Positions 6,770-61,214 of a stretch of 64,000 nt of DNA are shown in pieces. The stretch spans positions 40,130,101-40,194,100 of the forward strand of contig NC_057718.1 in assembly GCF_004010195.1 (NCBI RefSeq), read 5' to 3'. Both the position numbers and the translations under genes were made by a program. Source of the stretch: Chiloscyllium plagiosum. Its lineage: Eukaryota. The notes beneath the pieces were generated by a model. That model was given only the letters and a program-made list of their open reading frames with translations. It did not search any database and had not been told where the DNA came from. Each line of letters opens with the position of its first letter. Position 1 is the stretch's first letter.

Positions 6770-6895
6770 TTGGACTTCTGAATAATCCTTTCAGACTAAA
6801 CGTTAACTCTTAGTGACTCCACAGATGCTGCCAGACCTGTTCAGTTTCTTCAGGAGTTTGTTTAATTTTGAATATCTGCATCCGCAGTTTTTATA
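6770..6895 (+). mobile_element. Degenerate short Penelope-derived element (hammerhead family 2)
   Basis: ttctgaataa...aaacgttaactc...ccacagatgctgccagacctg...tctgcatccgcagt; same family as 22305, 29925, 55322 and 57052. Confidence 0.6.
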
Positions 6896-12693: not shown

Positions 12694-13531
12694 ATTGAAT
12701 CTTCTTGACTTTTTTGATGATGTAACTCTGAAGATGGACAAGGGAGATCCAGTAGATGTAGTGTACCTGGACTTTCAGAAAGCTTTTGATAAAGTCCCAC
12801 ACAGGAGGTTAGTGAGTAAAATTAGGGCGCATGGTATTGGGGACAAAGTACTAGATTGGATTGAAAATTGGTTGGCTGATAGGAAGCAAAGGGTAGTGAT
12901 AAACGGCTCCATTTCGGAATGGCAGGCAGTGACCAGTGGGGTACCGCAGGGATCCGTGCTGGGACCGCAGCTTTTTACAATATATGTTAATGATATAGAA
13001 GATGGTATCAGCAATAACAGTAGCAAATTTGCTGATGATACAAAGCTGGGTGGCAGGGTGAAATGTGATGAGGATGTTAGGAGATTACAGGGTGACCTGG
13101 ACAAGTTAGGTGAGTGGGAAGATGCATGGCANNNNNNNNNNNNNNNNNNNNNNNNNNNNNNNNNNNNNNNNNNNNNNNNNNNNNNNNNNNNNNNNNNNNN
13201 NNNNNNNNNNNNNNNNNNNNNNNNNNNNNNNNNNNNNNNNNNNNNNNNNNNNNNNNNNNNNNNNNNNNNNNNNNNNNNNNNNNNNNNGACATATAAGATT
13301 ATGAAAGGACTGGACACTCTGGCAGCAGGAAACATGTTTCCGCTGATGGGTGAGTGCCGCACCAGAGGACACAGCTTAAAAATACGGGGTAGACCATTTA
13401 GGACAGAGATGAGGAGAAACTTCTTCACCCAGAGAGTGGTGGCTGTGTGGAATGCTCTGCCCCAGAGGGCAGTGGAGGCCCAGTCTCTGGATTCATTAAA
13501 GAAAGAGTTGGATAGAGCTCTCAAGGATAGT
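12694..13531 (+). mobile_element. Young CR1 LINE ORF2 (RT) fragment, split by an assembly gap
   Basis: Open frame with VDVVYLDFQKAFDKVPH, SGVPQGSVLGPQLF, KFADDTKLGG and RNFFTQRVVAVWNALP; N gap 13132-13287; no 3' tail visible. Confidence 0.95.
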
Positions 13532-13954
13532 GTTTTAATTAAGACTGAGTTCTTCAGTGGTCTGGGTAAAAGAGGCATCCTTGATTAATGAGACTAAAAA
13601 AAACCCAATCTTAAATATACTTTTAATAATGGAACATCCACAACAGGTTAAGGTAAAAAGATTCCAAAGATTCTCAATCTTTCGAGTGGAGATATTTTTC
13701 TGTACTTGCCATACAGGTATGATCCCATATCCTGAAATTATGTCAGCTTGATCAAAATCTAACAGTAAGGGGGAGAAAAGTTAGTTTCCATCCTGTTAAT
13801 CCCCTTCATAATCTCAACTGTTACAATGAGATCAAATCTCAATCTTCCAAAGACTGACAAAAATAGTTTATAGTCTTTCATCAAAGGACGACCCTTCCAG
13901 AGACCAATCATGAACCTTCACTGTTCTGGAACACAGCAGGCAATTTCAAGTTTG

Positions 13955-15829: not shown

Positions 15830-15962
15830 TGGACAGAGTTAAAATTCACAACTCCAGGTTATAGGTCTAACAGGTTTATTTGAAAGTACAAGCTTTCAGA
15901 GTGCTGCTCCTTCGTCAGGTAACTTGTTGGATTATAACCTGGTGTTGTGTGATTTTAAACTC
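15830..15962 (-). mobile_element. Short fold-back Penelope-derived element with hammerhead core (family 3)
   Basis: Inverted arms aaaattcacaactccaggttatag.. / ..tataacctggtgttgtgtgatttt; minus-strand core CTGACGA-A-GGAG cagca CTCT-GAAA-GCTT at about 15890-15918. Confidence 0.75.
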
Positions 15963-16403
15963 CGAAGTGTCCAACTTTAGGTGCAATTCTGTATTTAGAC
16001 AGCACCTACCAAACAGTCTCAAGTATGTTAACAATTACACTAAACTAATTTAAGGTCATCAGTTGGGCTGGCAATTACACTTGGTAGAAGCTACACAGAT
16101 TCATATACATGGCTCTATTCTGTGTAAGAAGCAAGAAAATGTCCATACATTGCACCTTATTGTTTCCTGATACATTTCCCATGGCAGCACCTCAGCGAGG
16201 GTATAGTACATTCTTCCTGGTAATGCCTTGACCAAATGGAGTACACTTGTCAACCAATCAACATGTTTTTTTCATGCATTTTAAACTGCCATTCCCTTTG
16301 AATGTTGGCATCCTTACACCTATTCTGATCATTGCAAAATGAAAAGCTTCAATAGTGGGGCTCTTCTCAGCAAAACTCAACTATTACACATTGAGAAGAT
16401 TAC

Positions 16404-16594
16404 CTCCATCAATTCCAGCAACAAACTGGGCTCGATGATAATGGTTATATCGTATTCCAGTGCATTTTTGCCAGGTATAGAGCTCAAGAAGCTGTCTCTT
16501 ATTGCGCAAGCACCTTCAATAGCCTCCACAATGCCAGGCTTTCTCCAAACAGAACTGGCCTTTATCCAGCCAGTTCGAAACACACTCTGAGGCT
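16404..16594 (-). CDS. IARS2: IARS2 exon (~21)
   Basis: cag|AG CCT...GAG|gtaatc, 191 nt, [21 protein letters not shown]...[11 protein letters not shown]. Confidence 0.96.
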
Positions 16595-16687
16595 CTGAAA
16601 GAAAACAATTTAGATATGCATTTATTGTGCTTTGAGTCACAAATTTTAGAATACAAATGCAAATAACAGCACTGAAAAAAATGCTAC

Positions 16688-16833
16688 CTTTTTGGTTTGA
16701 TTGGTGTTGGAATACTTCCTCTGCAAGGTGAGGCAGGATTGGGGCTACAGAACGTGTGATTACATCTAATACTTCATCTAAAACTGTCTGACATGATAGA
16801 CGCTTGGTGCTTTTCTCATCTTCACAATATAAT
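16688..16833 (-). CDS. IARS2: IARS2 exon (~20), anticodon-binding domain
   Basis: cag|A TTA...AAA G|gtagca, 146 nt, [43 protein letters not shown]; 93-nt intron to the next exon. Confidence 0.96.
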
Positions 16834-17757
16834 CTGCAATTTTAATACAATAATGTTTAGGCAGACATAAACTTTAATATCTGCAGTAGAAAATAAAATG
16901 CTACATCAGCTCCATTGCTAACTCCTTAATGAAATAGTCTATGTCAACATATAATCAGCTCTAAAGAATGACAGGTAACAAAGCATGCTACATAAACATC
17001 AGACACCAAACAAAGCCCAGACGTCTCTGACCTCTAACAGGATGACTGTCACACGGGTTGCCCCACTATTTTGGAGATCAGCAATGATTACAAATTAAAC
17101 AAGGCCAGTCATGTCAGTACTATCACTGTAATTGCAGGACCTATGCTGTTAATCTAACAATGGGCTCATTCTTCCTAGTCCTTAAGAGCCTCTCCTTAGA
17201 AAGCTCAAGTCAAGAGTGATTAAAATATGCAGCATCATGTGGAAGATAGCAGTTTTCTTGACTGCTGCCTCAATATTGCTCTAAATATCACTAGGGGGCA
17301 CTGTGTTGCAATACACATGATCTATAAGATATACTGTACTGCAGCAATTCGACAGCATGCCTCTTGTCAACAACCCCTACCATCAAACAGGACAAGAGAA
17401 AAGATTGTGTGAATGGCATCACCTCAAAGTCACACATCCTGACATGAATATACCTCATCACTCACTTATATTAAAGTACTGGAATTCCCCTACTTAACAT
17501 TAAGTGAGCATTTCTGCACAAGGACTGTAGAGATTTAAAGGTATCACTGCCTTTTTAGAGCAACTGAAAGTCAGTAAATACCAACGTTGTGGTGTTGCCA
17601 TATCTGAAAACTAATTTTGCGGCAATATAAACTGATCCTGATCTGATCTACACATACAACCATTAGGGGGTTTAGAAGTCCATTTAAAGTACTTAGTAAA
17701 TGGCTTTTTGGTTTGCAAATGAAGTTTCAACATTGCCATTATGAATCTTATACTAAC

Positions 17758-20777: not shown

Positions 20778-20893
20778 GAGTTGAGAGTCTGGTGCTGGAA
20801 AAGCAGGCAGCATCTGAGGAGTAGGAGAATCAAAAATTCGGGCAAGAGCCCTTTATCAGGCATCCTGATGAAGGGCGTCTGATGCCGTTCATG
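20778..20893. mobile_element. Degenerate fold-back hammerhead-family-1 element with 17-bp TSD
   Basis: TSD cctttaagccacatgag (20761-20777) / cctttatgccacatgag (20894-20910); centre gccctttatcagg-cat-cctgatgaagggc. Confidence 0.75.
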
Positions 20894-21164: not shown

Positions 21165-21590
21165 TCAAGATCCTTATAAAGAAAGGCTGGATAGACTAGG
21201 ACTTTTTTCACTGGAGTGTAGAAGGTGATCTGATCGAAGTTTATAACATAATGAGAAGTATAGGTAGAGTTATCGAAAATTCTCTTTTCCCTATGATGGG
21301 GAATTTCAAGACTCGGGGGCACTTTTTTAAGGTGAGAAGAGAGATTTAAAAAAGACATGAGGGGCAAATTCTTTACACAGGGGCAGTTCATTGTGGAATG
21401 ACCTTCCTGAGAAAGTGGTGGGTGTGGGTATAATTACAATGTTTAAAAGACTTTTGGATAGATACATGATTAGGTAAGGTTTGGAGGAATATGGGCCAGC
21501 AGCAGGCAGGTGATACTAGTTTAGTTTGGGATTATGTTCGACATGGCCTGGTTGGACCGAAGGGTCTGTTTCAGTGCTGTATGACTCAAT
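21165..21590 (+). mobile_element. CR1/HER1 LINE 3' end
   Basis: ggctggatagactaggactttttt...ggaccgaagggtctgtttcagtgctgtatgactc. Confidence 0.88.
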
Positions 21591-21853
21591 GACCAACCAA
21601 GGCAAAAAGCAGTCTGCTTGATTGGCATCCTATCCTTCAGCATCATTCAATGTGACTGCAGCATGTACCATCTACAAGATGCACTGCAATTGTTCACTAT
21701 AGCGTCGCGTTGTTGTGGTTTGGCGGTGGATGAGTCCAATGACCAACCAAGGCAAAAAGCAGTCCGCTTGATTGGCATCCTATCCTTCAGCATCATTCAA
21801 TGTGACTGCAGCATGTACCATCTACAAGATGCACTGCAATTGTTCACTATAGC
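21587..21853. repeat. 117-bp direct duplication with 33-bp spacer
   Basis: 21587-21703 vs 21737-21853, one mismatch, period 150. Confidence 0.95.
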
Positions 21854-22304
21854 ATCTTCAACAACCTGTACTAAACATGCAATCTCTACAACCTAGAAGG
21901 ACAAGGGCAGTAGACACATGGGCTCATCACTACCTCAATGTTGTCCTCCAGTTCACATACTACTGTAACTTGGAAGTTTGTGTGCAGTTTTTGCATCATC
22001 ACAGAGTCAAAATATCAGAATTGTCTCTCTCACTGCACTATGGGGAATTTTTCACCACTTGGACTGTGTCAGTTAAAGGAGGCAATCCACCATCACCTTC
22101 TAAACTACTGATGAAAAATAATTTAACCTTTTCTCACACACATATGGTGTATACAAGTTTGATTTAATTCAGGTATTACCATTAAGCTTAATAATTGTGG
22201 TTATTTTAAACAAAATGAATATATCCATTATTTTTTCCAATGGTTCACTGTTGTTTTTTCCTGCTGTCAGTGGAAAGTTACTTACCTAAAACATTTAATA
22301 ATAG

Positions 22305-22400
22305 TTCAGTTCTGAAGGGTCATTGGACACGAAACATTAACCCTGCTTTCTCTCCACAGATGTTGCCAGACCTGCTGAATTTCTTCAACAATTTATTCCA
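22305..22400 (+). mobile_element. Short Penelope-derived element (hammerhead family 2), core eroded
   Basis: gttctgaagggtcattggacacgaaacattaac...ccacagatgttgccagacctgctga. Confidence 0.7.
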
Positions 22401-22957: not shown

Positions 22958-23431
22958 CTAAAAATACAGAATAAATTATTAAGATAAAGAAGCAGCCTCC
23001 TCCTGGTTTGTCTTCACCAGACGGCAAGGTAGAGATGGTCTTTATCACAAACTTCTAAGAGAATACGTATGATTGAAGGATGACAGATTTATGGCTGTTC
23101 TAAATTAAGACATGTTGAACACTTCTGAATAAGTCACTGCAAATATTAAAATAATGGCCATTATTAATAATTTTTTTTCTAGCTCATATCATAAATGAAA
23201 CTCTTGGCTTGTGCAATACTCAAATTATTTCAGCTTAATACATCACTTTAATTTTATAATAGGCTAAATAGACCACCAAAGCTCTTAACTAATTTCTAGA
23301 TACCTTGCTCTTCAAAATGTTCTCAAAATTACGTTTTCAAAAATGATGTCTAACAAAACAGCTAAGGTACCTAATCATTGTTTGTGAAATGCTGTAACAT
23401 ATCCTAATGATGTAAAAGGGGCTATATAAAT

Positions 23432-25093
23432 TAGCGAGTTTTGAGAAGAGTTGTAGCTCAGGTTGAGGTTCTGGGTGTAGGTTTGCTTGCTGAGCTGGAA
23501 GGTTCGTTTTCAGATGTTTAGTCACCATGCTAGGTAACAAATTCAGTGAGTCTCCGAACGAAGCACTGGTGGTGTAGTCTGCTTTCTATTTATATATTTG
23601 GGTTCTCTTGGGTTGGTGATGTCATTTTCTGTGGTGACATCATTTCCTATAGAGGTGTCATTTCCTGTTCTTTTTCTCAGGGGGTGGTAAATGGGATCCA
23701 AGTCAATGTGTTTGTTGATAGAGTTTCGGTTGGAACATCATGCTTCTAGGAATTCTCGTGCATGTCTCTGTTGGCTTGTCCTAGTCAAAGTGGTGTCCTT
23801 CCTCACCTGTATGTAAGGATACATGTATCCTGGTGGCTAGTTTTCTGCCTGTTCGTCCAATGTAATTCATGCACGGTATTTTGTAGGTGACATTAGTTTT
23901 GTGTGTTGTCTGTATAGGGTCCTTCAAGTTCATTAGCTGCTGTTTTAGTGTGTTGGTGGGTTTGTGGGCTACCATAATGCCAATGGGTCATAGTAGTCTG
24001 GCAGTCATTTCCGAGATGTCTTTGATATAGGAGAGTGTGGCTAGGGTTTCTGGACGTGTTTTGTCTGCTTGTTTGGGTTTGTTGCTCAGAAATAGGCAGA
24101 CTGTGTTCATTGGGTACCCACTCTTTTTGAATACGCTGTAAAGGTGATTTTCCACTGCTCTGCGTAGTTCCTCCGTGCTGCAGTGTGTGGTGGCTCGTTG
24201 AAATAATGTTCTGATGCAACTTAGTTTGTGGATTTTGGGATGATTGCTTCTTTAGTTCAGTATTTGTTGTTTTCCTGTGGACGCTAGTTTGAACTTCCGC
24301 ATTGGCTGATTGCTTTACTGTGACATCTAGCAATGGCAGTTTGTTGCTGTTTTCCTCCTCTTTAGTGAATTTTATGCCAGTAAGGGTATTATTGATGGTG
24401 TTGAAGGTTTCCTTTAATTTGTTTCATTTATTGATGACAAAGGTGTCATCCACATAGCAGACCCAACGTTTGGGTTGGATGATTGGCAGAGCTGTTTGTT
24501 CGAGTCTCTGCATTACTACCTCTGCTATGGCATGATAGTAGCCCACAAACCCACCAACACACTAAAACAGCAGCTAATGAACTTGAAATATCCTATACAG
24601 ACAACAAGCAAAACTAATGTCATCTACAAAGTATCTTGCAAGAACTGTAACAAATACTACATTGGACAAACAGGCAGAAAACTAGCCACCAGGATCCATG
24701 AACATCAACTAGCCACAAAAAGACATGACCCACCTTCACTAGTATACTTACATACAAGTACGGAATTCACTACTTCGACTGGGACAACATATCCATCGTA
24801 GGACAAGCCAAATAGAGACATGCACAAGAATTCCTAGAATCATGACATTCCAACCAAAACTCTATCAACAAACACATTGACTTGGATCCCATTTACCCAA
24901 CCCCTGAGAAAAAGAACAGGAAATGACACCACCACAGGAAATGACATCAATCACCCAAGAAAACCTAAATATATAAACAGAAAGTGGGCTACACCACTAG
25001 TGCTTCATTCAGAGGCTCACTGAAGATGTTACCTAGTATGGTGACGAAATTCTGAAAACAAACCTTCCAGCTCAGCGAGCAAACCTACATCCA
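23432..25093. mobile_element. Penelope-like element (Poseidon-like): two 5'-truncated copies in inverted orientation
   Basis: Minus copy (~24510 to 23432) has RT WVCYVDDTFVI (YVDD at 24445-24456) and a GIY-YIG remnant; plus copy (~24515-25093) has VIYKVSCKNCNKYYIGQTGRKLATRIHEH; 13-bp TSD gggctatataaat / ggactatataaat. Confidence 0.93.
25017..25055 (+). ncRNA. Type I hammerhead ribozyme motif in the Penelope pseudo-LTR (stem III damaged)
   Basis: tca-CTGAAGA-t-GTTACC tagtat GGTGAC-GAAA-ttc-tga; the minus copy at about 23510-23548 has the same stem II with a mutated core. Confidence 0.7.
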
Positions 25094-26032
25094 GGACTAT
25101 ATAAATGCTGGGGACCATCTGAAGAAAAGTTTTTTTCATAACAAGCCCAGTGATTGATCCTTCCTGGTACTCTTGTTTAAACATTTCTTTCATTGGAGGC
25201 TGTCGAGTAAGTTCACTCTGTGACACTATAATGCCAAAGAGTGTCTCTCTTTGATAGTGCAACAGAATATGAAATGCAGAACACTAAATTTAGAATAGAA
25301 CAGAATAGCAAACACCCATTCAACCTATGGTTTACAAAAATCAACTCAAACAGCAGACAAGTTTAGCATTTCCATGCAGTCCATATTTCCAACAGTCTCA
25401 TCCATTCAAGCAATATTTGCTTAAATACTGCTGAACAAGGGGCACATGTTGTTGCAACATTCTGTGTTGTACTCTCCAGAACATTTGCAAGAAAACCAAT
25501 ATAAGATGATGACAACATTTTTATACCATGTGAGAAAAACGTGTTGACTGTTTGTTGAATGAACTCCAATGGGCAGAAAATTGCATAGATAATGTACTGG
25601 TTGTTAACTGCCGAATTTTGTTTAAAATTTAAACAAGACAGGCTGACTCCAAATATTAAAGTCATTACCTTGAGCAATAAACTGGAGAATGGCTGTTGCT
25701 TATTTTGTTACGTTGTAATAGGCACAGTGTGCTTTATCTGCAAAGAACTGCATCTCTTGTGTTAATATATGAAGCTTCTAGTATGTGCAGGTGCACATAC
25801 TATGTGCCCAACTCTCTGGTTGATGGCTTTCCACTCTCATCCGGCACTTGTTCCCTTTTACTACTAATCTAGTAGATTGTGGAAATGAAAATGTTCTCAT
25901 CAACTCAAGGATCAAGGATAATGCAGGAAAGTAACGATGAAGTGGAAGACTAACCACGATCCCTGTGAATAGCAGGGTGCTGAATGGGAAAGGGCTGTAA
26001 GGACTACTCTTGCTCCCATTTATGTTCTAATA

Positions 26033-29924: not shown

Positions 29925-30030
29925 CCAGTTCTGCAGAAGGGTCACTGTACTCGAAATATTAATTCTGCTTTCTCTCCACAGATGATGCCAGACCTGCTGA
30001 GCTTCTCCAGCAATTCCTGTTTTTGTTCCA
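29925..30030 (+). mobile_element. Short Penelope-derived element (hammerhead family 2)
   Basis: ttctgcagaagggtcactgtactcgaaatatt (core with mutations) followed by ctctccacagatgatgccagacctgctgag. Confidence 0.72.
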
Positions 30031-32990: not shown

Positions 32991-33589
32991 TTTTGATGAT
33001 CATATAACACACTATTCATGCCACTGATATGTGAGAATATTGAATTGCCTCTAATTTTAAAATTTTAATAAGAACACCTGATCAATCCACTGAGATCCTC
33101 CTGCAGTTTATAGTTATCCTCCTTACTATTCACCTCCCAACTAATTTTTGCGACATCTGCAAACTTCTTGATCAAATGGCCTGAATTTAAGTCCATATAC
33201 TTAATTATAACCCACAACAAGAAGGGTCACAATACCAAGACCTGCAGAACCTCACTGGAAATAGATTTTCACTCACAGAAACATTCCGTCTGCGTTCACC
33301 CTCCATTGCCTCTTGGCCAATTTTGGATTCAATGTGCCACTTTGCCTTGCGTCTCAAGCTCTTAACTTTCCTGACCAATCTGTCATGACGGATGCTGTCA
33401 AAAGCCTTATTAAAATCCACATAAACCACATCTTCTTCGACTTATAACAAGGCACTCCTCTTTGTAATGTCAATCCAAATCATCAGAAAATAGATTGCAG
33501 CCAAATTCAGGTCATGCATTCCAGATGGGCAAGGATTCTGATCAGGTGAATTTATAACATTGTCCTCCTAAAGTGTGAATCAATATAGC

Positions 33590-34955
33590 AGCCTAAGAAG
33601 GCTCATGCAGCATGTTTCAATGACTACTGCCCAGTGGCCCTAAATTCGGTGGTCATGAAGTGCTTTGAAAGGCTGATCATGGCATTAATTAACTCCAGCC
33701 TCCCCATTACTCTTGACTCACTCCAATATGCCTATCGAACCAACAGATCCATGTCAGATGCCATATCACTTGCTCTTTACTCCTCCTTAGAACATCTTGA
33801 TAACAAGGCACTCCTCTTTGTAATGTCAATCCAAATCATCAGAAAATAGATTGCAGCCAAATTCAGCTACATAAGAATCCTACTCATTGACTACAGTTCA
33901 GTCTTTAACACTATTATCCCCTCGACACTGATTACTCAACTTGGTGATCTCAAACTAAGCCCCATTTTCTGTAACTGGATCCTCAGTTTCCTGACCCACA
34001 GTTCACAATCAGTGAAGACTGGGGACAATATTTCATCATCACCAGCACTCAACCCCCTACTGTACTCACTGTATACCCATGACTGCGTTGCCAAATACCA
34101 GACTAATGCCATTTACAAGTTCACCAATGACACCACCATTGTCGGTCGAATCTCAGATGGCGTCAGACGGGAGGTGGAAGACCTGGAAAAATTGTGCACT
34201 GAGAACAACCTAGCTCTCAATGCCAGCAAAACCAAGGAACTCATTATTGACTTTTGGCGGGATGTTACACATGCACCCCCCTACACTTTTAACAGCACAG
34301 AGGTGGAATGAGTGGAGAGTGTCAAGCTCCGAGGAGTGGTCATCCACAACAAGCTTCCTTGGACTCTTCATGTGGACGCACTGGTTACAATGGCCCAACA
34401 ATACCTTTTCTTCCTCAGGCAGCTGAGGAAATTTGGCATGATGGCAAATATCCTTGCCAACTTTTATAGGTGTGCCATTTGGAGCATCCTGTCTGGATGT
34501 ATCACTACCTGGTATGGCAACTGTACCATTCAAGATTGGCGACGGTTACAGAAAGTGGTGAACTCGGTCCGGACAATCACAAAGGCCAACTTCCCATCTA
34601 TAGAATCCATCTACCAGGCCCGCTGTCAAGAAAAAGCCACCAGCATTCTCAAAGATCCATCCCACCCTCGGATGTTTTTCTACAACCTCTACCATTGGGG
34701 AGAAGGTACAGTCGCCTGAAGAGAGAGAGAGAGAGAGACACACACACACAGGTTTGGAACAGTTTCTATCCTACAGTTGTTAGAATACTGAATGGAGTCT
34801 CAAACTCTTAATATTTGCCTGTTTTTGTTTTTGCCACTGTTTACCTATTATTTACTTATCGATGCCACTTAACTCTGTGATCTGCCTGTATTGCTCGCAA
34901 GACAAAGCTTTTCACTGTGCCTCGGTACACGTGACAATAAATTCAATTCAATTCA
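33590..34955 (+). mobile_element. Rex1/Babar-clade LINE, 5'-truncated, (ATTCA)n tail
   Basis: NDYCPVALNSVVMKCFERL, DSLQYAYRTNRS.SDAI, IDYSSVFNTI, LYSLYTHDC..KFTNDTT, LNASKTKELIIDF, SILSGCITTWYGN. Confidence 0.88.
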
Positions 34956-36394
34956 GGGGTATGGACACCACGAGGAGGTAACATTAGAAAGGAAAAATAA
35001 GGTACATAAAAATTTGAGAGAGACAGTATTAGAGTAAATATTACAAAGATATCAAGTGGCGTCAGAGTAGAAGAAAATGGAATAAAATGCAAATTAGATT
35101 TGTTGTGTATATAAGTGAATGCATGGTGTGTGGTAAATGGTTGCTCAGCTGCAGGTACAGATAATCAAGTGGAAATATGATGGTATGGAAATAACAGAGA
35201 TCTGATTTTAAAAGATGCAGGATTGGGTTCTAAGTATTCCTGGATACAAGGAAAAATAGATAAGGAACTAAGACAGGAGTGATAGGGTGTCTTAGAGAAG
35301 TCAAGAACAAAAAGTATTCAGACCACAGCTAAGAAATAATAGTTACCATCATAATACTGGGTGTATTCTATACATCACCACTAAGTTGGAAAGATATGGA
35401 GGAACAAATTTACAAGAAATTACAGAGGGCATAAAACTATAAAGCAATTTTTATTAGAGGCTTGAATTATTCTAATGTAGACAGGGATAGTAACAATGTC
35501 AGAGCAGAGAAAGGGAAGAACTTTTGAAGTGTGCTCAGGAGAATTGACTCAAACAGTACATTTCAAATCAGTGCAGAAGGAAGGGTTGCTGGACCTGTTT
35601 CTGGGAAATGAGGTGGGTCATGTGGATCCAATCTCAGCAGGGGAACACATCAGAGATTATAATCATACTCAACCTGAACCTTATGGTACTATGGCAAAGG
35701 ACAAAACATAAAAATATAAAAACTAGGAGCAGTATAGGCTAATCTCAATACAGCTTTAACACCAATTCCATGCCTGCCCCAAATAAGCTTGGACTCCTTT
35801 GTAGATAAATAACCTGTATAACTCAGCCTGAATCTATTCAATGAACCAGCCTCTCTCCTTTGCAGAGAATTCCAAACATTATTATTGCTCAGAGAAGAAA
35901 TTCCTCCATGTTTCTACCTTAAATGAGACAACGCTTATTCTGAACAGCATTGTGGTTCCAGTACCCATGAAGGAAAGGAAAGTATTCTCTTCACCCTCTA
36001 CCATGTTAAGCTTTCAGAGAATCTTCCCACTTGCAATAAGATCACCTTTCATTTTTCTAAAATTGAATTATGTACAGGCCCAACATTCTTAAATGTTCCT
36101 CATAAGACAACCTCGAATTGAGTGTGCAGGGCTCATTTTCAAACTGTGTGGAAAGTACAAAACCTTGAAGTATTGGGAACTGTGAGAAGGCAGAGATTAG
36201 ACTTCAAAAGGACACAATCAGCCAGGAGGAAAAGGTAGACACATGGAAAATACAGTTTAAAGCAGAAAAAGTGTGAAGTGATACATTTTTGGAGGAAGGA
36301 TGAGGAAGGGCAATGCAAAACAAGGGATACAACTCTATGGGGGGTATGCAGGAGCAATGGAATAGAACAGAACATATGTAGACAAATCATTGAG

Positions 36395-36546
36395 GAGAAA
36401 GTGAGGTCTGCAGATGCTGGAGATCAGAGCTGGAAATGTGTTGCTGGAAAAGCGCAGCAGGTCAGGCAGCATCCAGGGAACAGGAGAATCGACGTTTCGG
36501 GCATAAGCCCTTCTTCAGGGCTGCGCTTTTCCAGCAACACATTTCC
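36395..36546 (-). mobile_element. Young fold-back hammerhead-family-1 element with 15-bp TSD
   Basis: TSD agacaaatcattgag at 36380-36394 and 36547-36561; second arm internally deleted. Confidence 0.9.
36486..36520 (-). ncRNA. Minimal type I hammerhead ribozyme motif, sense to IARS2
   Basis: Minus strand cc-CTGAAGA-A-GGGC ttat GCCC-GAAA-C-GTC-gattc; core intact, stem I weak. Confidence 0.72.
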
Positions 36547-36625
36547 AGACAAATCATTGAGTGTGGCAGAGCAGGTTGGGAAAGCAGTTAGTAAATTCAA
36601 GCTATGGAATTCAAGGCTTTATAAA

Positions 36626-39128: not shown

Positions 39129-39231
39129 CTATATGGAATCTGTTTCTCAGCTGCTACACTGGTGAGCAGTGAGGATTGAAACCATCCACCCAGTTGATCC
39201 TTCCCCTCCAGGTACACATCTGCAACATTAC
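39129..39231 (-). CDS. IARS2: IARS2 exon (~15)
   Basis: tag|GT AAT...TAT AG|gttagt, 103 nt, [35 protein letters not shown] (EGxDQxxGWF motif). Confidence 0.94.
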
Positions 39232-44299: not shown

Positions 44300-44915
44300 G
44301 TGCGCCCTTATTTCAGAGGGGCTGGAGTACAAGAATAGGGAAGTCTTTCTGTACAAGGTTAAAAATCTCAGAACACCAGGTTATAGTCCAACAGGTTTAT
44401 TTAGAAGCACTAGCTTTCGGAGCGTTGCTTCTTCATCAGGTAGTTGTGGAGAATAAGATTGTAAGACACAGAATTTAGAGCAAAAGTTTACAGTGTGATG
44501 TAACTAAATTTATATATTGAAAAAGACACGGATTGTTTGTTAAGTGTCTCCCATGTTGGTTTCAGTTTCTGTACAAGGTGCTAATTAGACCACATCTGGA
44601 GTACTGACAGCAGTTCTGGTCCCCTTATTAAAGGAAAGATATTTCATTGGAGGCAGTTCAGAGAAGGTTCACTAGGATGATCACTGGTATGGAGGGATTG
44701 TTTTATGAGCAGAGGGAAAACAGCTTGGAACTGTACTCATTGGAATTCAGAACAGGTGATCTCATTGAAACATATAGGATTCTTAAGAGGCTTGACAGGG
44801 TGAATGCTGAGAGAAAACATCTGGCAAGTCTAAGACCAGAAGTACAGCCTCAGAATAAAGGGACAACTATCTAAGACTGAGATAAGGAGGAATTTCTTTT
44901 CTTGGAGGGTTGAGG
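44300..44915 (+). mobile_element. CR1 3' ORF fragment interrupted by a hammerhead-family-3 element
   Basis: GLEYKNREVFLYKV|LIRPHLEY...LEAVQRRFTRMI. Confidence 0.85.
44360..44565 (-). mobile_element. Penelope-derived terminal fragment (hammerhead family 3) with 14-bp TSD
   Basis: TSD tttctgtacaaggt at 44346-44359 and 44566-44579; minus core tac-CTGATGA-A-GAAGC aac GCTCC-GAAA-GCTA-gtg at 44411-44439. Confidence 0.85.
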
Positions 44916-51559: not shown

Positions 51560-54500
51560 ACAAGTCATGGAAAGAATATCCCTAGGATTAAATAAAGTTA
51601 ACTGTACTATACTCCTGTATTGAGGCCACAGGATTTAAGTATTGCACTACCAGGATTGGATTGACAGAAACAACGCAGAAGACGCAACCTCCTGCAGCAA
51701 AAACAAACTGCCTTCGTTGCACAGCAAAACAACCCAACATCACAAATTGAACAGGCAGCATTCTAACAGCTGAAGGCTGACACCTAAAGACAATATGGAA
51801 AGCAGACTGCAAATGATGAAAGAGAAAGCGCGACACTTGCAATAGCATGCTGACCATCACAACATACAAAGCATTCAGAAAGATACGAGCCAGTTACAGT
51901 ATAGACCAACCCATGGGGTCAAAATCCTCTTCATTCATAGTTTGGTATTTCTTTTCTAAATGATGAATGTCTTCCATCAATGCTGCAAAGAACATTTTCA
52001 AATACTCCTCGACCGTGACTTCACAGTTGCAACTGCACTCTCCAGGCAATCAGTTACGATCCCACGGTAGAATCCGTGGTGAATCATTATTGATAGGATA
52101 GTCATTGAGTCACAGTACAGAAAGAGGCCCTTCGGTCCAAACAGGCCATGCCGAACATAATCCCACCTGCCTGTTCCTGGCCCATATACCTCCAAACCTT
52201 ACCTATTATCCAAATATCTTTTAAACGTTGTAACTGTGGCCACATCCATCACTTCCTCAGGAAGTTCATACCATATGCGAACCACTCTCTGTATAAAAAA
52301 TTTGTCCCTCGTGTCATTTCTAAATCTCTCTCCTCTCACCTTAAAAGAAGGTGTCCATGTCTTGAAATCCTCCATCCTAGGGAAAGTGACTTACCATTTA
52401 TCCCATCCATACCTCTCATGATTTTATAAACATGAATTTGAATTAGAATCCCCACAGTGTGGAAACAGGCCCTTCAGCCTAAGAAGTCCACACCGACCCT
52501 CTGAATAGTAACTCACCCAGACCCATTCCCCTATCCTATATTTTACCCCTAATATACCTAACCTACACATTCCTGAACATTATGGGCAATTTAGCATGGC
52601 CAATTCACCTAACCCGCACATCTTTGGATTCTGAGAGGAAAGGTGCACCTGGAAGAAACCCACGCAGACATGGAGAGAATGTGCAAACTTCACACAGCAA
52701 GTTGGCCGAGGCTGGAATCAAGCCTGGGTCCCTGGTGCTGTGAGACAGCAGTGCTAACCACTGAGCCATTGGGCTGTCCTTCTATAAGATCATCTCTCAA
52801 CCTCCTAAGCTCCAGCTGAAACAAGCAATCAGACGCATGAGAAACAACAGTCTGCGAGCCCTAATAGCATTCCAGCTAAGGTTTTCAAGGTTATTGGGTT
52901 TTTATTCAAATCAATACACGACACACTTATTCTATGAATTTGGGTGGAACAAGACCACCTTATCATCTCCTCAAACTGCAGTAATACAAAAATGGCAACT
53001 ATCTTCAAGAAAGGAAAATCATGCTATGGGAACTATCATGGTATTTTCCTCCTATGCAGAGCAGGGAAAGTTCTGACAGGTGTCCTCCTGAATTATCCAC
53101 TTCTTGTGGCTGAGTAATTCCTCCCAGAGACATATTTGTGGGCCTGTGGGGCTTTTGACCTTCCACGGACACCTCAGACATGTTCCTTATCGCTAAACAA
53201 ATTCAAGGAGAATGTTGAGAACACTAATGTAATGTGGATTTTATGGTGATTAACTGGACCAAAGCATTTGATTCAAGAAAATTGCAAAACTCTCATCTCA
53301 ATCTTGCAACAGTGTCACGTAAAGACTATATGTGCACCCATCAAGTCTTCTCCACCATTCAATGAGATCACGGTTGATTTATTAGTCTTCAACTCTACTT
53401 TGTCCTAAAACCTTTGATTTCCTTACCGATTAAACATCTATCTCCACATTGAATATATTTAATAAGCCTCAATAGCTTTCGGTGGTAAAGAATTCCACAA
53501 ATTCAGTATCTTCAGAGAAGAAATTCCTCTTCATTCGACGATACGACTGCAACTGGCTTGACTGCAAGATCTTGAACAGCCTCCTTCAAAACCCGGACTG
53601 TGTTAGGCAAGGCTGTGAGATAACCCCAAACTATTTACAAGCTATCTGACGATAGTTATTCACCTCAACAAAGATCAACTGCCCTGTGGTGTCATTACAA
53701 ACTTTCACCAAGATGAAACAGTCTAACCTCAATCACCTCTGTACCAAAACTAAACTGATCACCATATACAAATATGATTATTAGTTTGCAGAAGTCTTTG
53801 GAGTCATTGCTCATCCTGAACAGGATTTGCAAAACACTCGCCATCTCTTCATTTCTGGATAGAAGAGATTTGGGCTGACCTTAAACACAGCCAAAACAAA
53901 GGTCCTATCAATGCAGATCTAGTCAGTCAAATATTCCACCTTCTATACATATGGAAAGAGACGCTCTGTAATGTGCTGTGTGTCCCCTATATCTTCGCAA
54001 TCACACTATCAAAAGTTCATCATTGGTGAGGAGATCTAATACCAGATCAGCTGGGCAAACTATGTCAGCAAATATTTGACAACGTTCACTACATTTCCAT
54101 AAAAATGCCAATTTATAGAAAAATTGTCATCACCACATTCCTGTATTGCAATGGGACATGGACTTTGCACCAAGACATACAAGAGCTAGAGAAATTTCAC
54201 CAGCAATTCCACCACATTCTCTATATTCAATGGGAGCACTGTTGAACAAATACAAGTGTCTTTCTTGAAGCCGACTCTAAGTATTCAGATAAACAACCTG
54301 AAGATCAATAATATGGACAATGACTGGACATTGTATCCAGATGGCTGAAAAGCATGTCTCCAGTCAGGTCCTAATTTTTCAAGTCACCTCTCAAAAAGCC
54401 AGCATTCAAAGGGAGGACGATGTAAATGCTACAAAGATACTCTGCAGCTCTCTATGAATTGCAGCAGCATTGACATTAGCGACTGAGAGAACTTTGCTAC

Positions 54501-54620
54501 AGATCCTTCGAAAGGGCAAGAACTTGACATTCAAGCTGCATCAGCTTCGAGTCCAAACACTTTAATAATGAGGAAACACCGTAACTCTTTGGATCCCATG
54601 ACTTATAGAATTTTCTAGCT
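51560..54620 (+). mobile_element. Degenerate RTE-clade LINE with nested insertions
   Basis: Remnants KARHLQ.HADHHN, TIFKKG...GNYHGIFLLCRAGKVL, DTSDMFLIAKQIQGEC.E, WTKAFDS and FGLTLNTAKTKVL. Confidence 0.75.
52100..52815 (-). mobile_element. CR1/HER1 3' end with nested HE1 SINE (52436-52780)
   Basis: CR1 tail ggcccttcggtccaaac... resumes after the SINE at ctataagatcatctctcaacctcc. Confidence 0.88.
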
Positions 54621-54787
54621 TATGTGGGTCAAGAATTAGCATGTTCAGTCAAGTGAAGAAACAGGCCCTTGGAAACTCCCAACATGGAGTGAATCAAGGG
54701 GCTGTTGATGGCGACAAGCCTGGGAGAATGGCACATTGAAGATAGTTTCTTTTTATTTGATTCTCCCATGACCATGACTGAATTTAG

Positions 54788-54991
54788 AGAGAAAGTGAGG
54801 GCTGCAGATGCTGGAGATCAGAGCTGAAAATGTGTTGCTGGAAAAGCGCAGCAGGTCAGGCAGCATCCAAGGAACAGGAGAATCGACGTTTCAGGCATAA
54901 GATTCCTGAAGAAGGGCTTATGCCCGAAACGTCGATTCTCCTGTTCCTTGGATGCTGCCTGACCTGCTGCGCTTTTCCAGCAACACATTTT
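54788..54991. mobile_element. Young fold-back hammerhead-family-1 element with 15-bp TSD
   Basis: 77-bp inverted arms 54825-54901 / 54917-54993 (1 mismatch); TSD catgactgaatttag at 54773-54787 and 54992-55006. Confidence 0.93.
54901..54938 (+). ncRNA. Minimal type I hammerhead ribozyme motif
   Basis: gattc-CTGAAGA-A-GGGC ttat GCCC-GAAA-C-GTC^gattc; stem I 4/5 bp with a U-U pair, stem II 4 bp, palindromic ACGU stem III, GUC triplet ending at 54933. Confidence 0.78.
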
Positions 54992-55321
54992 CATGACTGA
55001 ATTTAGTCAGACTCCAAAGGAAACTTGACCAAACACAAGATAATATTGTTTATTTGTTACTTTCCATGCCCTATGAAGGTGATGCCAAGAATGATTCTCG
55101 TGTGTCACTGGAGCATTATAAACTCTGTAAAAGTAATATAACTTTATAGCTTAAGATCTGTTGCTGAGAATTCAGGGAATGTGCTTCACAGTTCTATGTT
55201 AAATTGAGGTAATTTTCAGCACCCATGGCAACAAAGTGAGTTTCTGCTCTTGCTGTCACATTGAAGACACCCATAGTCGATTACTTAGGTAAAATTCTTC
55301 CTAACAGCCTCAAATTTTATA

Positions 55322-55550
55322 AAACAAAGAGATGCAGATGCTGGAAATCTGAAATAAAAACAGAAATTGCTGCAGAAACTCAGCAAATCTGCCAGCATCT
55401 TTGGAAAGAAAGCAGAGTTAACAAGTCTAGTGACTTCTTCAGAGTAGACCCTTCTTCAGAAAGGTCATTGGACTCAAAACATTAACTCTGCTTTCTTGCA
55501 TAGGTCCTGCTAGCCCTGCTGAGTTTCTCCTGCAATTTCTGTTTTAGCTT
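55322..55550. mobile_element. Fold-back hammerhead-family-2 element, eroded
   Basis: Arms aaaacagaaattgctgcagaaactcagc..gaaagcagagttaa / ttaactctgctttc..gctgagtttctcctgcaatttctgtttt. Confidence 0.8.
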
Positions 55551-57051
55551 CAATTATTATTTACTTGGAAAGCAGTTCCACTGCAATTGCATATCTCGAT
55601 GTGTTATACTCACAGGTGAACTTGACGTGGAGTCTTGGAATGATATTCTTTCCATTTACAAAGCAATTTGAGAATAAAATCAAATGTCTCACCCATTTAG
55701 CTGTACTGAATTATTTCTCTTCATTTATCATTTACCATAATTAGTCTACAATTGGAAAGCTAGCATTTAATACGCAGTGTGAATAAAGGGTGAGTAAGGA
55801 AGGAAAATAGTTCATCTATCCAATCGCTTGTAATAATTGGAAACTGACCCTGGTCCTTTGACTTAGATTAAACTTCAACTGAGGGAAACAGATATGAGTT
55901 GGAATCCTGGGAGTCTCAAAAATCTGGATTATTTCACCAGGTTAAAGTAGCCTAGCTGCTGCTGTCAGAATTTTCTAAGGTCGAGACAGCCTTGGGAGCT
56001 TGTGAGTAGGTAAATTGTTTTTACTTTTCATATACCAGACGAGAAAATATTTTTACAATATTGGATACAGTTCGATAGTTTCAGTTGAGTAGGGAAGCTG
56101 GTCTATTGATTTGCAGTCAGAATGACATAAAGTGGATTATACTAACTCTGTATTATAACTCTACACTTAAGAACCAGAATCGCAGTTGCAGATGGCTCCA
56201 AATGTCGAAACATAGGAGTCGTAGTAGGCAACTCAGACCATCAAGTTTACTTCACCATTCAATACAATCATGACTGATGTCCACTTCAATACCTTTCTTC
56301 CCCACACTGTCAAAGGAAACTTGCAAGAACTTGAAAATGCTTCTGGAAGCATCTTCTGTTACAACATACTCTTCCACCTGTGAAATCATTAATTCCTGTG
56401 CAACCAGGGTATGTACAAAAATCTCAACAGTTCCCAACTGAAGAAAGATTAATTAAGTGAAACTAATAACTTAAACCCAAAATATACTTCCATTGTGTGG
56501 TTAGGTCTGTTAGCGGGTGACAGTAAGGGTTCATTGAGAAAGGAGCAAGAGAGGTTTGTATTCAGAAGCCTGGTTAATCCGAACCCCAACGTCCTCATTC
56601 TTGGGAATGATCCATTGAACAACAATTCCAATAGAAAATACACTGTTGTGTCATGATTCCTAAAACGATAGTTTTGTTAGAGACTACCAGGTTTTAACAC
56701 CATTAATACAGAAATCAGTTGGCTGGATGATGGCTAGGTAGGGTGAAATACTAAACAGTCCATGCAGTTCAGAGATTGTACTGCCCTATTTTGGAAGGAT
56801 GGTGTTAGAAACAGCAGTAGGGAATAGAACAAGTCACCGGAATAGAATCATTAAATTCTGGAGAAAGAGGGTTAAAATTTCAGAACCAAGTTCCAAAGAA
56901 CAATCATATTACACTAAAAACATTAATACTGTTTAGCTCTCCACAGATGCTGTGCAACCTCTGAACCACAGGGACTCTTCACTGTTCCATCCTTCCTCTA
57001 TGTCACCCAGCCAGCTGATTTCTGATGTCAGAAGTCTTAATTTGTTAACCA

Positions 57052-57310
57052 AAAAGCAAAACACTGTGGATGGTGGAGATTTGAAATTAAAAAAAAGAGT
57101 AAGTGTTGGCGAAAGTCAGCAGGTTTGCCAATATGTGTGGAGAGAAAAACAGTGTTAAAATTTCAAAATGAAGTTCTGAAGAAGAATCATATTAGACATG
57201 AAATGTTAATACTGTTTCTTGGTCCTCAAATGCTGCCAGATCTGCTGATGTTCACCAGCACTTTCTCTTTTCATTTCAGATCTCCAGCATCCACAGTATT
57301 TTGTTTTTTT
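57052..57310. mobile_element. Fold-back hammerhead-family-2 element (another fragment at about 56860-56952)
   Basis: Arms caaaacactgtggatggtggagatttgaaat / atttcagatctccagcatccacagtattttg; centre ttCTGAAGAagaatcatattagacatGAAAtgtt. Confidence 0.8.
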
Positions 57311-58308
57311 TAACAAATTATTGGAGCACAATTGAACAGGTATTATCAGGAACATCCTCTTTTTATATACAAAAGCTAATTAGGTAGAAATGGGTGAACA
57401 TGGAATGTTCTCAGCATACATTTGGCTGGAATGAGCCTGGGTATAATTTTTCTTCCATGTAATGTGACTGGCTGGATAGAAAAAGAAAATTGCTTAACAA
57501 ATTGGTGAGTAACAAAGATGGAAGTTTACTAATTAAAAGAAAAAGATATAAATAGCAATAATGAAGGAAACAGATCAGTAGCTCAATGATCCCAATGCAG
57601 TTTCAACTCCATATACTTAACAGGTAAGATATTTTATTGCACGTGGTTAATTTACTTCACTTGAAAAGCAATTAACAGCTAAGTGGGCCACAACTTTCAC
57701 AAAACAGGCAAGAATCAGTAACAGGGCTGAAGCTTTCATCTTCATATCAAACTTTCAGAGCTAATTCCAGTGATGAGCTACCTTTAGCCGAAGTGTAAGG
57801 AAAGATTGTTTCAAGTCCAAGGTGCCAGAGGTCTCCCTATTTTTAATTATGAAACTAAATGGATATATAACTATAATTAGCCTCTGATTTGTTATAGGAA
57901 TTTTATGACTAAATTCTCTAAGACAGGCTACTCTGCAGTCGTGTTTCTACTACTTTTACAAAGTTTATCATTCATTAAATAGTATAAGTATGACCATTGA
58001 ATTTATTTATGGGTCAGATCCCAATTATGAAGTTGTTTCAACAATTAGCACTAATTATTGAGGCAACTATGTAATAACAAAACACATTTTTCTAAGTTCT
58101 TGGCTACTCATTATTGGGGGAAAAAAAGCCAACTGCTTGAATCCATGAAAACCTCCCTCTGACTTGCGTCAGTAACGTTTAGTTTATAGCATGTCTACTG
58201 CATTTTTAACTTAGATTTCAGTCAATTTTAGCTTAAGGTCAATAATCCTGTGCATAACAATGAATGATTCCTTATGATGTTTAGCCATCATTAATATTAA
58301 CTTCTCAC

Positions 58309-58402
58309 CTTCTAATACATGTGCCCACGAGGTGCCACTATCAAACCAAATATCTAAGATATCCTCTCCTTTGACATAATCAGACACATCAGAACCTCCG
58401 CT
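58309..58402 (-). CDS. IARS2: IARS2 exon (~14); upstream exons lie beyond the window
   Basis: cag|AGC...GAA G|gtgaga, 94 nt, [31 protein letters not shown] (DxWFDSG motif); not shown in this frame in the ORF track. Confidence 0.96.
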
Positions 58403-61214
58403 CTGTAGAAATAGAAAACAAAATTGTAATTGGATCTTAACAAAAATATTTCTACACTCTCCAGTTTACTAAATACAGCTGACTTACCAAACTGTCTTGC
58501 ACGTGTAAATGCAAATACTATTTTGATTTGTTTAGCATTACAAAACAGCAAACTACAGAGGTGAGGTGGAAATGATAGTCAAATATAGCCTTGATGTCAT
58601 GGGCAAAGTGTGGCATCAAAAGCTCTAGTAAAATTGGGGTGAATGGGAATCAGGTGAAAAATCTCTGCTGGTTGGAGGCATATTTAGCAAACAGGAAGAT
58701 GGTGATTGTTGGAGGTCAACCTTCTCAGTTAAAGAACATCACTGTAGCAGTTCTGTAGAAGAGTATCCTCAGCCCAGCCATCTTCAGCTGCTTCATCAAT
58801 GACCATCCCTCCAACGTAAGGTTAGAAGTGGGCATCATTTCACAATGTTCAGCATCATTTAGATCTCCTCAGGTGCTGAAGTAGTACCTGTCTAAATGCA
58901 GCCCGCCACAGACAACATTCAGGCTTGGAAGGTCAAGTCACAAATAACATTTGTACCAAATTAGTGCCATGCGATGGCCATCTCCAATCAATGTAAATTT
59001 AATTAAACCCACCCACTCTAACAGTCAATGGTATGACCATCACCGAATCTCACATTATCAACATCCTAGGGCTTACCACTGATCAGAAACTTAAGTAGAC
59101 TAGCCAAACAAATACTGTGGCTACAAAATATCAGGGGTCAGGAATCTTGTTGCAAATAACTCCTCTCCTGACACTCCCAACAAAGCACAAGTAATGACTG
59201 TGAAGGAATACCTGCTTCTTGTGTGGATGAGTGCAGTTCCAACAGTCAAACAATGTGATACTATCTAGGATACTGAACTGGCAACACATCCACAACCATT
59301 CACTCCCTCCACCATCTACACGATGCAGAGGTTCATCAAGGTCCTTTAACAGCACCTTACAAATCCACATTCACTACAATGTAGAAGGCAGCAGATACAC
59401 AGAAACACCATAGAGTTCCTCTCCAAGCCGCTCATCATCTGGACATGGAAATATATCATTGCCCCTTTAGTGTTGCTGGATTAAAATCATCAAACTCCCT
59501 TCTCCATAATAGCATTGTGGGTCTACCTACAGCACATGAAGGTAGTGAAGTTTAAGAAGGTAGCTAATCACCACTTTCTCAAGGGCAGTAAATGCTGGTC
59601 CACCCAGTGAATCCTACATCACCTGAATTAATTTTTTGCTTAAATTGTGGGAAGACTCTCTGGTCTAAATTATTCCCATATTACCACTGTGGAAAAGGTG
59701 CTGTTACACCCATGTGAAAAAAAAACTCATGGGGGTTTAGCTTCAAGCAAGATTTACTGTTTCTGTGATGCCAGCAATGGATAAAATCTGTTTGAGTTTT
59801 AATTCTGATCTAGTGTTATGGTTGATCAGTAAAGCACTGAATACCATAAGTTGCAGAATACCATATATTCATCAGATTTTACAGGATAGCTTCGGCATTT
59901 TATCTCATGGAAACACTCAAACAGCTACAGAATTTTGCAGATCTAATATGGAACTGCTGAGGACAAGCCCATTATGTTTATGCTTGTGAATAAAAAGCTA
60001 TTATTCAGCCTTATCCCATTTTCCAGCTCTTGGCATCAAGTCTTGCTGCCGACTGTACTTCAACTGCACATAGAGTCATAGGGCCACCCATGCTGACCAG
60101 GTTTCCCAAACTGAACAACTCCCACTTGCCTATGTTTGGCTCATATGCCTCAAAACTTTTCCTATCTAAGTACATGTGCAAATATCGAAGTGTATTTTTG
60201 TTAAATAATGATAAATTCTTCTGCCTCTATAATACTTTCTTGGAATGAATTCCAGACCTTCTTCATGCTTTGGATGAAAGAAAATTATTCAACTCCACTC
60301 CTATCCTTTCACATCTCTGTTAACAGCAATAGCCCTTTCCTGTCCATTCTATCTAGGCTTCTCATAATTTTATACACCTCAATTAAATCTCTCCTAATCT
60401 GCCTCATATCTCAAAACTTTTAAGTCCTGGCAATACCCTCTTAAATCAATCATTTTCATACTTTCTTTAACGTATTCACATCCTTCAGGTACTATGATAC
60501 CTGAATGTTACACAGCAATAATTATAATTTAGTTATAATACGTGTCAGATTTTGCTAAAAAATTCAAAGTCCACACTTGAATGTTATAGTACTACCATTA
60601 GTGGGAAGGAACAATTACAGAATGCCAAATTTACAAAGATTCCATTTTGAGTTTTGCCTCAACTAGTTCTTCAGCCTGTCCTAGAAAAAATTCCATGCTC
60701 TTACAGAGTTTAGTTCTCCACTTCTAAATCGTGATAAGAATATTAATTATAAATGTGAAATCAAATGACATAAAAATCACTGAATGCATGATTTAAAAAT
60801 GGGGACCCAATTACAGCCAAGTGCACAAACCAACTTAACCCCTGCTTTATCCCTTCAATTGGGATGTTGCTTCATCTTAAATCATGTGCAATACAGAAGA
60901 TGGTCAAGTATAAATTAAGAAAAGCACTACATAAAATTACCTGAATTAAATTTATTTTCTAGTTTTACTCCAAATAGTTTTGAAAATCTCAGCAAAAAAT
61001 ATGCTAGTAAGCAAAATTATTCCAGTACATCAACTCACTGAACTGTGTCAATGCACCCTTGAAAATTGGGAACCTACTTAGACTGCACAGTTTGCAATCC
61101 CGTACCATCTATCTAGTTTCTGGGTATTATTGTCCCCAATAACAAAGATAGATTGCACAACATCACCATGGCCAAGTCTCTCTCCAGCACTATGTGTGTT
61201 GATTTGAGTAGAGA

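Follow-up and report, generated by a model that had tools for sequence, protein, structure and literature searches.

A hammerhead-bearing hairpin in Chiloscyllium plagiosum DNA is a truncated, head-to-head insertion of a Penelope-like element

A stretch of 64,000 nucleotides of Chiloscyllium plagiosum DNA (the window, below) contains at 54773-55006 a short sequence that folds back on itself and carries the letters of a hammerhead ribozyme at its turn, and this raises the question of what kind of element left it there. The original prediction took it for a member of a distinct, non-autonomous family of about 200 bp, processed by its ribozyme like a retrozyme and mobilised by Penelope-type machinery. 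The insertion is real and recent. It consists of the end of a very common Penelope-like element (PLE) in two copies, head to head, and is the ordinary product of a known retroelement class, not a new kind of mobile element. The insertion consists of the following parts.

54773..54787, plus strand: left copy of the 15-bp target-site duplication (TSD), identical to 54992-55006
54788..54826, minus strand: PLE tail, found in the inverted arm only; its length is 39 nt, or 37 when the 2 bp shared with the TSD are assigned to the arm
54827..54901, minus strand: inverted arm, element positions 16-90, which starts inside helix II, does not have CUGAnGA and bears the sole C>T mismatch
54902..54991, plus strand: forward arm, element positions 1-90, which begins 4 nt before hammerhead C3
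54906..54933, plus strand: minimal type I hammerhead core (C3-A9, bulged A, 4-bp helix II, G12-A14, a palindromic ACGU replacing helix III, C17)
54992..55006, plus strand: right copy of the TSD; contigs of two other runs align from exactly 54992, without the element in front

The 15-mer of the TSD occurs exactly twice in the whole window, both times flanking the insert, and its two copies are the identical ones that had been predicted. The predicted inverted repeat is also present: 54825-54901 and 54917-54993 pair along 77 bp, and the only mismatch is a C>T change in a CpG. The arms thus stand as first described, but the extra, unpaired 37-39 bp of the left one (54788-54824/6) had gone unmentioned. 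Because the final 2 bp of the arms overlap the right TSD, the insert proper is 54788-54991 (204 bp), which corresponds to element positions 16-129 inverted plus positions 1-90 forward (position 1 being 54902). The arms lie head to head with both 3' ends outward, one of them longer by the tail, and they meet at 54901/54902 in a blunt junction without microhomology. Poly(A) is absent from the insertion and the whole window has no tRNA gene, in agreement with the predicted absence of a poly(A) and of a tRNA head; tandem arrays were not found in 53000-57000.

As to age, the two contigs that begin at 54992 (one of 1,771 bp, whose organism label is that of the best-matching runs, and one of 578 bp from a second organism) would represent empty sites, and on this reading the insertion is recent and possibly polymorphic. 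Over about 309 bp, the contig of run X2 has 5 substitutions and two deletions relative to the window flank 55010-55300. The second organism shares five of these differences, and the contig represents a notably divergent haplotype under the same organism label.

The window holds a second insertion of the family, which shows what is constant in such copies and what is not.

36380..36561, no strand assigned: second insertion of the same family, with its own 15-bp TSD (36380-94 and 36547-61)

Its inverted arm (36395-36519) comprises element positions 4-128, that is, the whole core plus the tail, and its forward arm (36520-36546) positions 65-91. The outer ends of the two window copies agree within 1 nt while their centres differ (positions 16|1 versus 4|65), and the tail measures 37-39 nt in both, ending within 1 nt of the same place. 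Arm lengths range from 27 to 125 bp across copies, and the two 15-bp TSDs are unrelated in sequence. Within each insertion the arms share variants, at positions 47 and 90, that are absent from the other insertion; both arms of an insertion would, to judge from these variants, derive from one source in one event.

Outside the window the family is very abundant. At least half of the element's sampled words were found in 20 of 24 listed sequencing runs (11 studies, four organism labels). Three DNA runs from three organisms, none of them among the 4 runs that are possibly the source of the window DNA, were aligned to 54875-55300: the arm drew 54,084, 77,500 and 72,453 contigs, and the flank one contig in two runs and none in the third. 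These counts point to tens of thousands of family copies, summed depth not being a copy number. All 15 joints listed, from a total of 34 in the three DNA runs, were different, which means that the fold-back is not fixed. At the left, the loose end seen most often is shared sequence continuing upstream of 54902 (363, 424 and 381 contigs), which makes the family longer than the 54788-54991 insert, and its consensus could be traced for about 14 nt; the second commonest is a stop at 54903 (131-152 contigs per run).

The best explanation, in which we have good confidence, is a dead-on-arrival insertion written by an endonuclease-bearing PLE. A GIY-YIG/RT protein would cut the target with a 15-nt stagger, and each cut strand would prime cDNA synthesis on element RNA; one start would lie where the tail ends, the other about 39 nt further 5', where the pseudo-LTR ends. 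The two cDNAs would extend toward the 5' end of the RNA and stop early, one of them 4 nt short of the hammerhead core and the other 11 nt inside it; they would then be joined head to head, with fill-in yielding the TSD, and the hairpin would be made anew at each insertion. Two-strand priming at two internal start sites is modelled on the Anolis Poseidon protein (in the portion of PMC11167929 considered here), a lizard element of possibly another clade, and this weighs against the explanation, as does the fact that self-priming, or one RNA copied twice, would give the same DNA. Self-priming has been proposed for palindromic junctions (PMC3846280, in the part consulted). The youth of the insertion and its origin from Penelope-type machinery, both predicted, are supported.

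What the hammerhead contributes is a separate matter. Its letters are placed as originally written: CUGAAGA at 54906-12, the bulged A, helix II at 54914-17/54922-25, GAAA at 54926-29 and C17 at 54933, the predicted cut falling after 54933. The motif has the sequence features of a min-HHR (a free N7, the bulge after A9, G10.1-C11.1 and a palindromic 15.2-16.2), and the insertion does carry a PLE-type minimal hammerhead, as foreseen. While the core stands, helix I is weaker than it had been drawn: the left arm ends with the G at 54901, whereas the loose-end consensus of the family (363-424 contigs per run) has C in front of 54902, and helix I is thereby reduced to 2 bp, a U-U mismatch and a further pair. 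Owing to this weak helix I, a strict descriptor that requires 3 contiguous helix I pairs missed the motif at 54906-54933. A descriptor of the core found 4 sites in the window; 200 first-order Markov simulations gave 0.105 sites on average and never more than 1. Rfam, in contrast, gave no match in the window at the gathering score and, at E up to 10, 13 matches in 54700-55100 that were all below gathering scores and none of them a hammerhead. The proposed search with hammerhead models was therefore successful with the descriptor and not with Rfam. The miRNA models of Rfam (E up to 10) matched the insertion below threshold only, and none of the fold z-scores computed for the hammerhead region reached significance (-1.69, 0.37 and 0.12).

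The original prediction had also called for excess conservation of CUGAnGA and GAAA across copies, and this was observed. None of the 17 non-CpG positions of the core and helix II varied at 2% or more, against 17 of the 65 other non-CpG positions (Fisher p 0.017; a position counts as variable with a variant of at least 2% in at least one of three runs, the positions are not independent and edge effects apply). Across the family, variation in the three runs falls on N7, a single base of loop II, 6 of the 8 CpG positions and many positions downstream. Furthermore, three families of the window retain the core and form helix II from differing sequences, the palindrome being ACGU or AGCU (helix II pairs across families are taken from the descriptor output). 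Because the core and helix II are constant while N7, the CpG positions and the downstream positions vary, the hammerhead is under selection in the source elements, while the copies decay at CpG. The AGCU palindrome belongs to a third hammerhead family, found at 15839-15958 (a fold-back) and 44358-44442.

At this locus, in contrast to the source elements, the hammerhead is unlikely to work. In fold computations the forward arm by itself forms helix II with a probability of 0.97-1.0. In the whole insert this probability falls to 0, and forcing the ribozyme fold there costs 32.2 kcal/mol; in growing transcripts from 54788 the probability of helix II is at most 0.006 at all lengths computed. Dimer pairing is computed as only 4 intermolecular bp of -3.1 kcal/mol. 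According to these models the motif at 54906-54933 probably cannot fold in place, buried as it is by the 77-bp duplex, and would be an inert passenger, the ordinary pseudo-LTR motif of its family. Moreover, both arms run through the cleavage site, from which it follows that both templates were uncleaved RNA. The orientation of the host gene also bears on the matter.

58214..58465, minus strand: host exon, a stop-free frame of an isoleucyl-tRNA synthetase (IARS2-like) gene, from a motif scan

The next IARS2-like exon motif was found by the scan near 39208. The assignment to this gene comes from motifs that we take to be those of isoleucyl-tRNA synthetase exons. Since the insertion lies between the exon motifs near 58354 and 39208 it is intronic, and the host pre-mRNA reads its core antisense. 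In all, IARS2-like exons lie on the minus strand of 11400-58465 near 58354, 39208, 31443, 16377-16841 and 11460. The second copy (36395-36546) has an intact core on the minus strand, sense to the host pre-mRNA; its helix II can form (computed P 0.96-0.98), although its helix I is down to a single base.

An ORF-bearing parent is presumed for this family. An RT plus GIY-YIG ORF joined to terminal sequence of this kind was seen in another family only.

23419..25106, no strand assigned: older, ORF-bearing PLE fragment of another family, taken as comparator, with a 13-bp TSD with 1 mismatch

Its inverted arm has a tail of about 36 bp. The coding remnant shows the RT motif YVDD and a GIY-YIG domain, which matches PF01541 at E 7.9e-5 (23.3 bits, the cut-off being 22.6), and a minimal hammerhead follows directly at 25020; the arms are about 75% identical. 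No sequence shared with the 54773-55006 element was detected, and it is an analogy for the layout with coding sequence attached, not the parent. Decayed older stubs of related families lie at 6770-6860, 20778-20880, 22307-22394, 29926-30015, 55333-55552, 56861-56952 and 57038-57320; several of them are fold-backs, and homology stops a few bases upstream of the hammerhead core. The window also contains fragments of non-LTR retrotransposon reverse transcriptase (12695-13588 and 33850-34719, with an RVT_1 match for 33850-34308) and direct repeats (67 bp, exact, 33444-33510 and 33800-33866; 130 bp, 96%, 21578-21856).

Searches for the parent of the family itself gave little. Its upstream motif has no exact match in the window, and metagenome and viral contigs scanned for longer copies yielded 0 in either. 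Protein searches with two frames of the second copy returned 0 of 8 candidates, 0 of 3, and 0 matches in 1.84 billion representatives, weak tests with queries of 94 and 40 residues. The 38 bacterial loci that share a 19-mer with the element are matches by chance, the best reaching 41.9 bits. In the literature searched no description of the family was found, and three of the element's motifs were matched in no paper; the family may already be catalogued in Repbase, Dfam or subscription journals, which lie outside that search. Neither shark terms nor the element motif occur in the supplements of PMC8557442 as available, or in those of PMC4209133 that were searched (all but one file).

This outcome counts toward a variant of the above explanation, namely that the insertion chemistry is the same and the template was a short non-coding PLE derivative, SINE-like and starting a little upstream of the hammerhead, that borrows the protein of a related PLE, as does MRC1 in Chlamydomonas. 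Non-autonomous PLEs have been described (PMC8557442) and pseudo-LTRs suffice in trans (PMC3846280), as far as the portions of these papers considered here go; no link to an ORF turned up in the window, the contigs or the proteins. In addition, the short copies of this and related families in the window end within about 10 nt upstream of C3, which may mark an RNA 5' end, and the stop at 54903 is the second commonest left end. However, contigs running upstream of 54902 are about 2.4-3.2 times those stopping at 54903, and the 5' limit would be the same if an autonomous element were transcribed from a point just ahead of the hammerhead, so that a short template is unlikely, though it comes next after an autonomous one.

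Still less probable is the proposal that the arm ends record two RNA 5' ends, one just before the hammerhead, where the RNA would start, and one at the cleavage site. Among the best 12 of 123 joints, 8 have an end that falls within 54933-54941, at the predicted cut or directly behind it. These are the best-supported joints, with orientation unspecified, and a 5-letter word at both 54901-05 and 54934-38 may attract joints, so that the pile at 54933-54941 could be a footprint of ribozyme cleavage or an effect of alignment. Three of these joints run to 54993 and restart at 54936-54941; they are possibly partial tandems. On this proposal, if true, reverse transcription in the germ line would use RNA already cut by the ribozyme, which might stem from a short non-coding master, and the insertions, in their tens of thousands, would be the first in vivo footprint of PLE hammerhead cleavage.

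The distinct retrozyme-like family of the original prediction, a fixed fold-back of about 200 bp that is cut from transcripts by the hammerhead acting as a dimer and re-inserted as a unit, has very little probability left. The intact and invariant core speaks for it, as does the self-complementary ACGU, which resembles published dimer-type motifs. Against it, the junction differs among copies while the outer ends are fixed, which goes far to refute a fixed unit, and those ends are not at the cleavage site. Furthermore, the arms come from uncleaved RNA, the hairpin excludes the ribozyme fold in transcripts from 54788 as computed above, no tandem accompanies the insertion in 53000-57000, and the host intron reads the antisense strand.

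A MITE, or a non-autonomous DNA transposon with terminal inverted repeats, can be dismissed almost entirely: the insertion is short and non-coding with long inverted repeats and direct-repeat flanks, but its arms are not terminal, given the 39-nt one-sided tail, and vary from copy to copy, a hammerhead core is present, and its two known TSDs, of different sequences, are longer than those of the superfamilies that yield MITEs. Cut-and-paste superfamilies of this kind leave TSDs of 2-11 bp. The predicted warning against a MITE label is therefore justified, and the termini of a DNA transposon with fixed short TSDs, which were to speak against a retroelement, are not what the copies have.

With the PLE insertion thus preferred, its significance is small in itself, as that of one stub among very many, and lies mainly in its use as material. 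An inverted pseudo-LTR with a tail and a minimal hammerhead has already been published (PMC3846280, PMC4209133 and PMC11167929, in the parts consulted), and PLE stubs of this kind are open to mislabelling as MITEs or miRNA hairpins. In addition, a young and very abundant family with fixed outer ends and variable centres can serve to map the starts and stops of PLE reverse transcription in vivo, and to ask if RNA that gets copied is ever cut by the hammerhead, a question that the lizard work in vitro left open (PMC11167929, as far as consulted).

How the insertion compares with known systems can be stated from the available portions of the papers cited below. Animal retrozymes have canonical hammerheads and circular RNAs, and their 150-450-bp units stand in head-to-tail tandem, the arrangement that defines them (PMC7229834; bioRxiv 10.64898/2026.07.22.740005). 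The present element is like these non-LTR retrozymes in being non-coding and PLE-related, with a type I hammerhead and longer TSDs, and unlike them in being a single head-to-head insert with a minimal hammerhead and one core per insert (same sources). Minimal hammerheads in pseudo-LTRs, on the other hand, number thousands per genome, mostly as single motifs, the majority of which represent truncated PLEs, and sometimes as opposite-strand pairs 100-700 bp apart (Cervera and de la Pena 2014, PMC4209133). The motif described here shares with those of metazoan PLEs the type I topology, the extra base between A9 and helix II, G10.1-C11.1, the palindrome replacing helix III and the weak helix I, as well as the thousands of dispersed single copies, some in close opposite-strand pairs; its helix II has 4 bp, compared with 7-8 bp in Schistosoma motifs (PMC4209133).

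For the Anolis carolinensis Poseidon (PAc) protein it has been described that it cuts and extends both DNA strands, that the tail is the distance between two internal RT start sites, and that hammerhead mutants insert equally well in vitro (Frangieh et al. 2024, PMC11167929). Like PAc, the present family has two 3' ends a tail-length apart, downstream of the hammerhead, and its copies keep an uncleaved hammerhead. They differ in that the PAc ORF begins at helix II (PMC11167929), while the ATG at 54920, in helix II of the present element, opens a frame that ends at a stop in the tail and has no protein match. Standard features of PLEs are the inverted pseudo-LTR, the one-sided tail of 30-40 bp and the TSD (PMC3846280, PMC8557442, PMC8969392), which measures 8-10 bp in rotifer examples (Arkhipova et al. 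2013, PMC3846280; Craig et al. 2021, PMC8557442). The insertion resembles those of EN+ PLEs in the head-to-head inverted 5'-truncated copy, the one-sided tail, the TSD and the strong 5' truncation, and departs from them in having no coding sequence left and in its 15-bp TSD, against the 8-10 bp of rotifers (PMC3846280, PMC8557442). The insertion at 54773-55006 works like a truncated EN+ PLE insertion and, in four features out of five, is one: a head-to-head inverted 5'-truncated pseudo-LTR, a one-sided tail of 30-40 bp, a hammerhead in the pseudo-LTR, and variable 5' truncation with fixed 3' ends.
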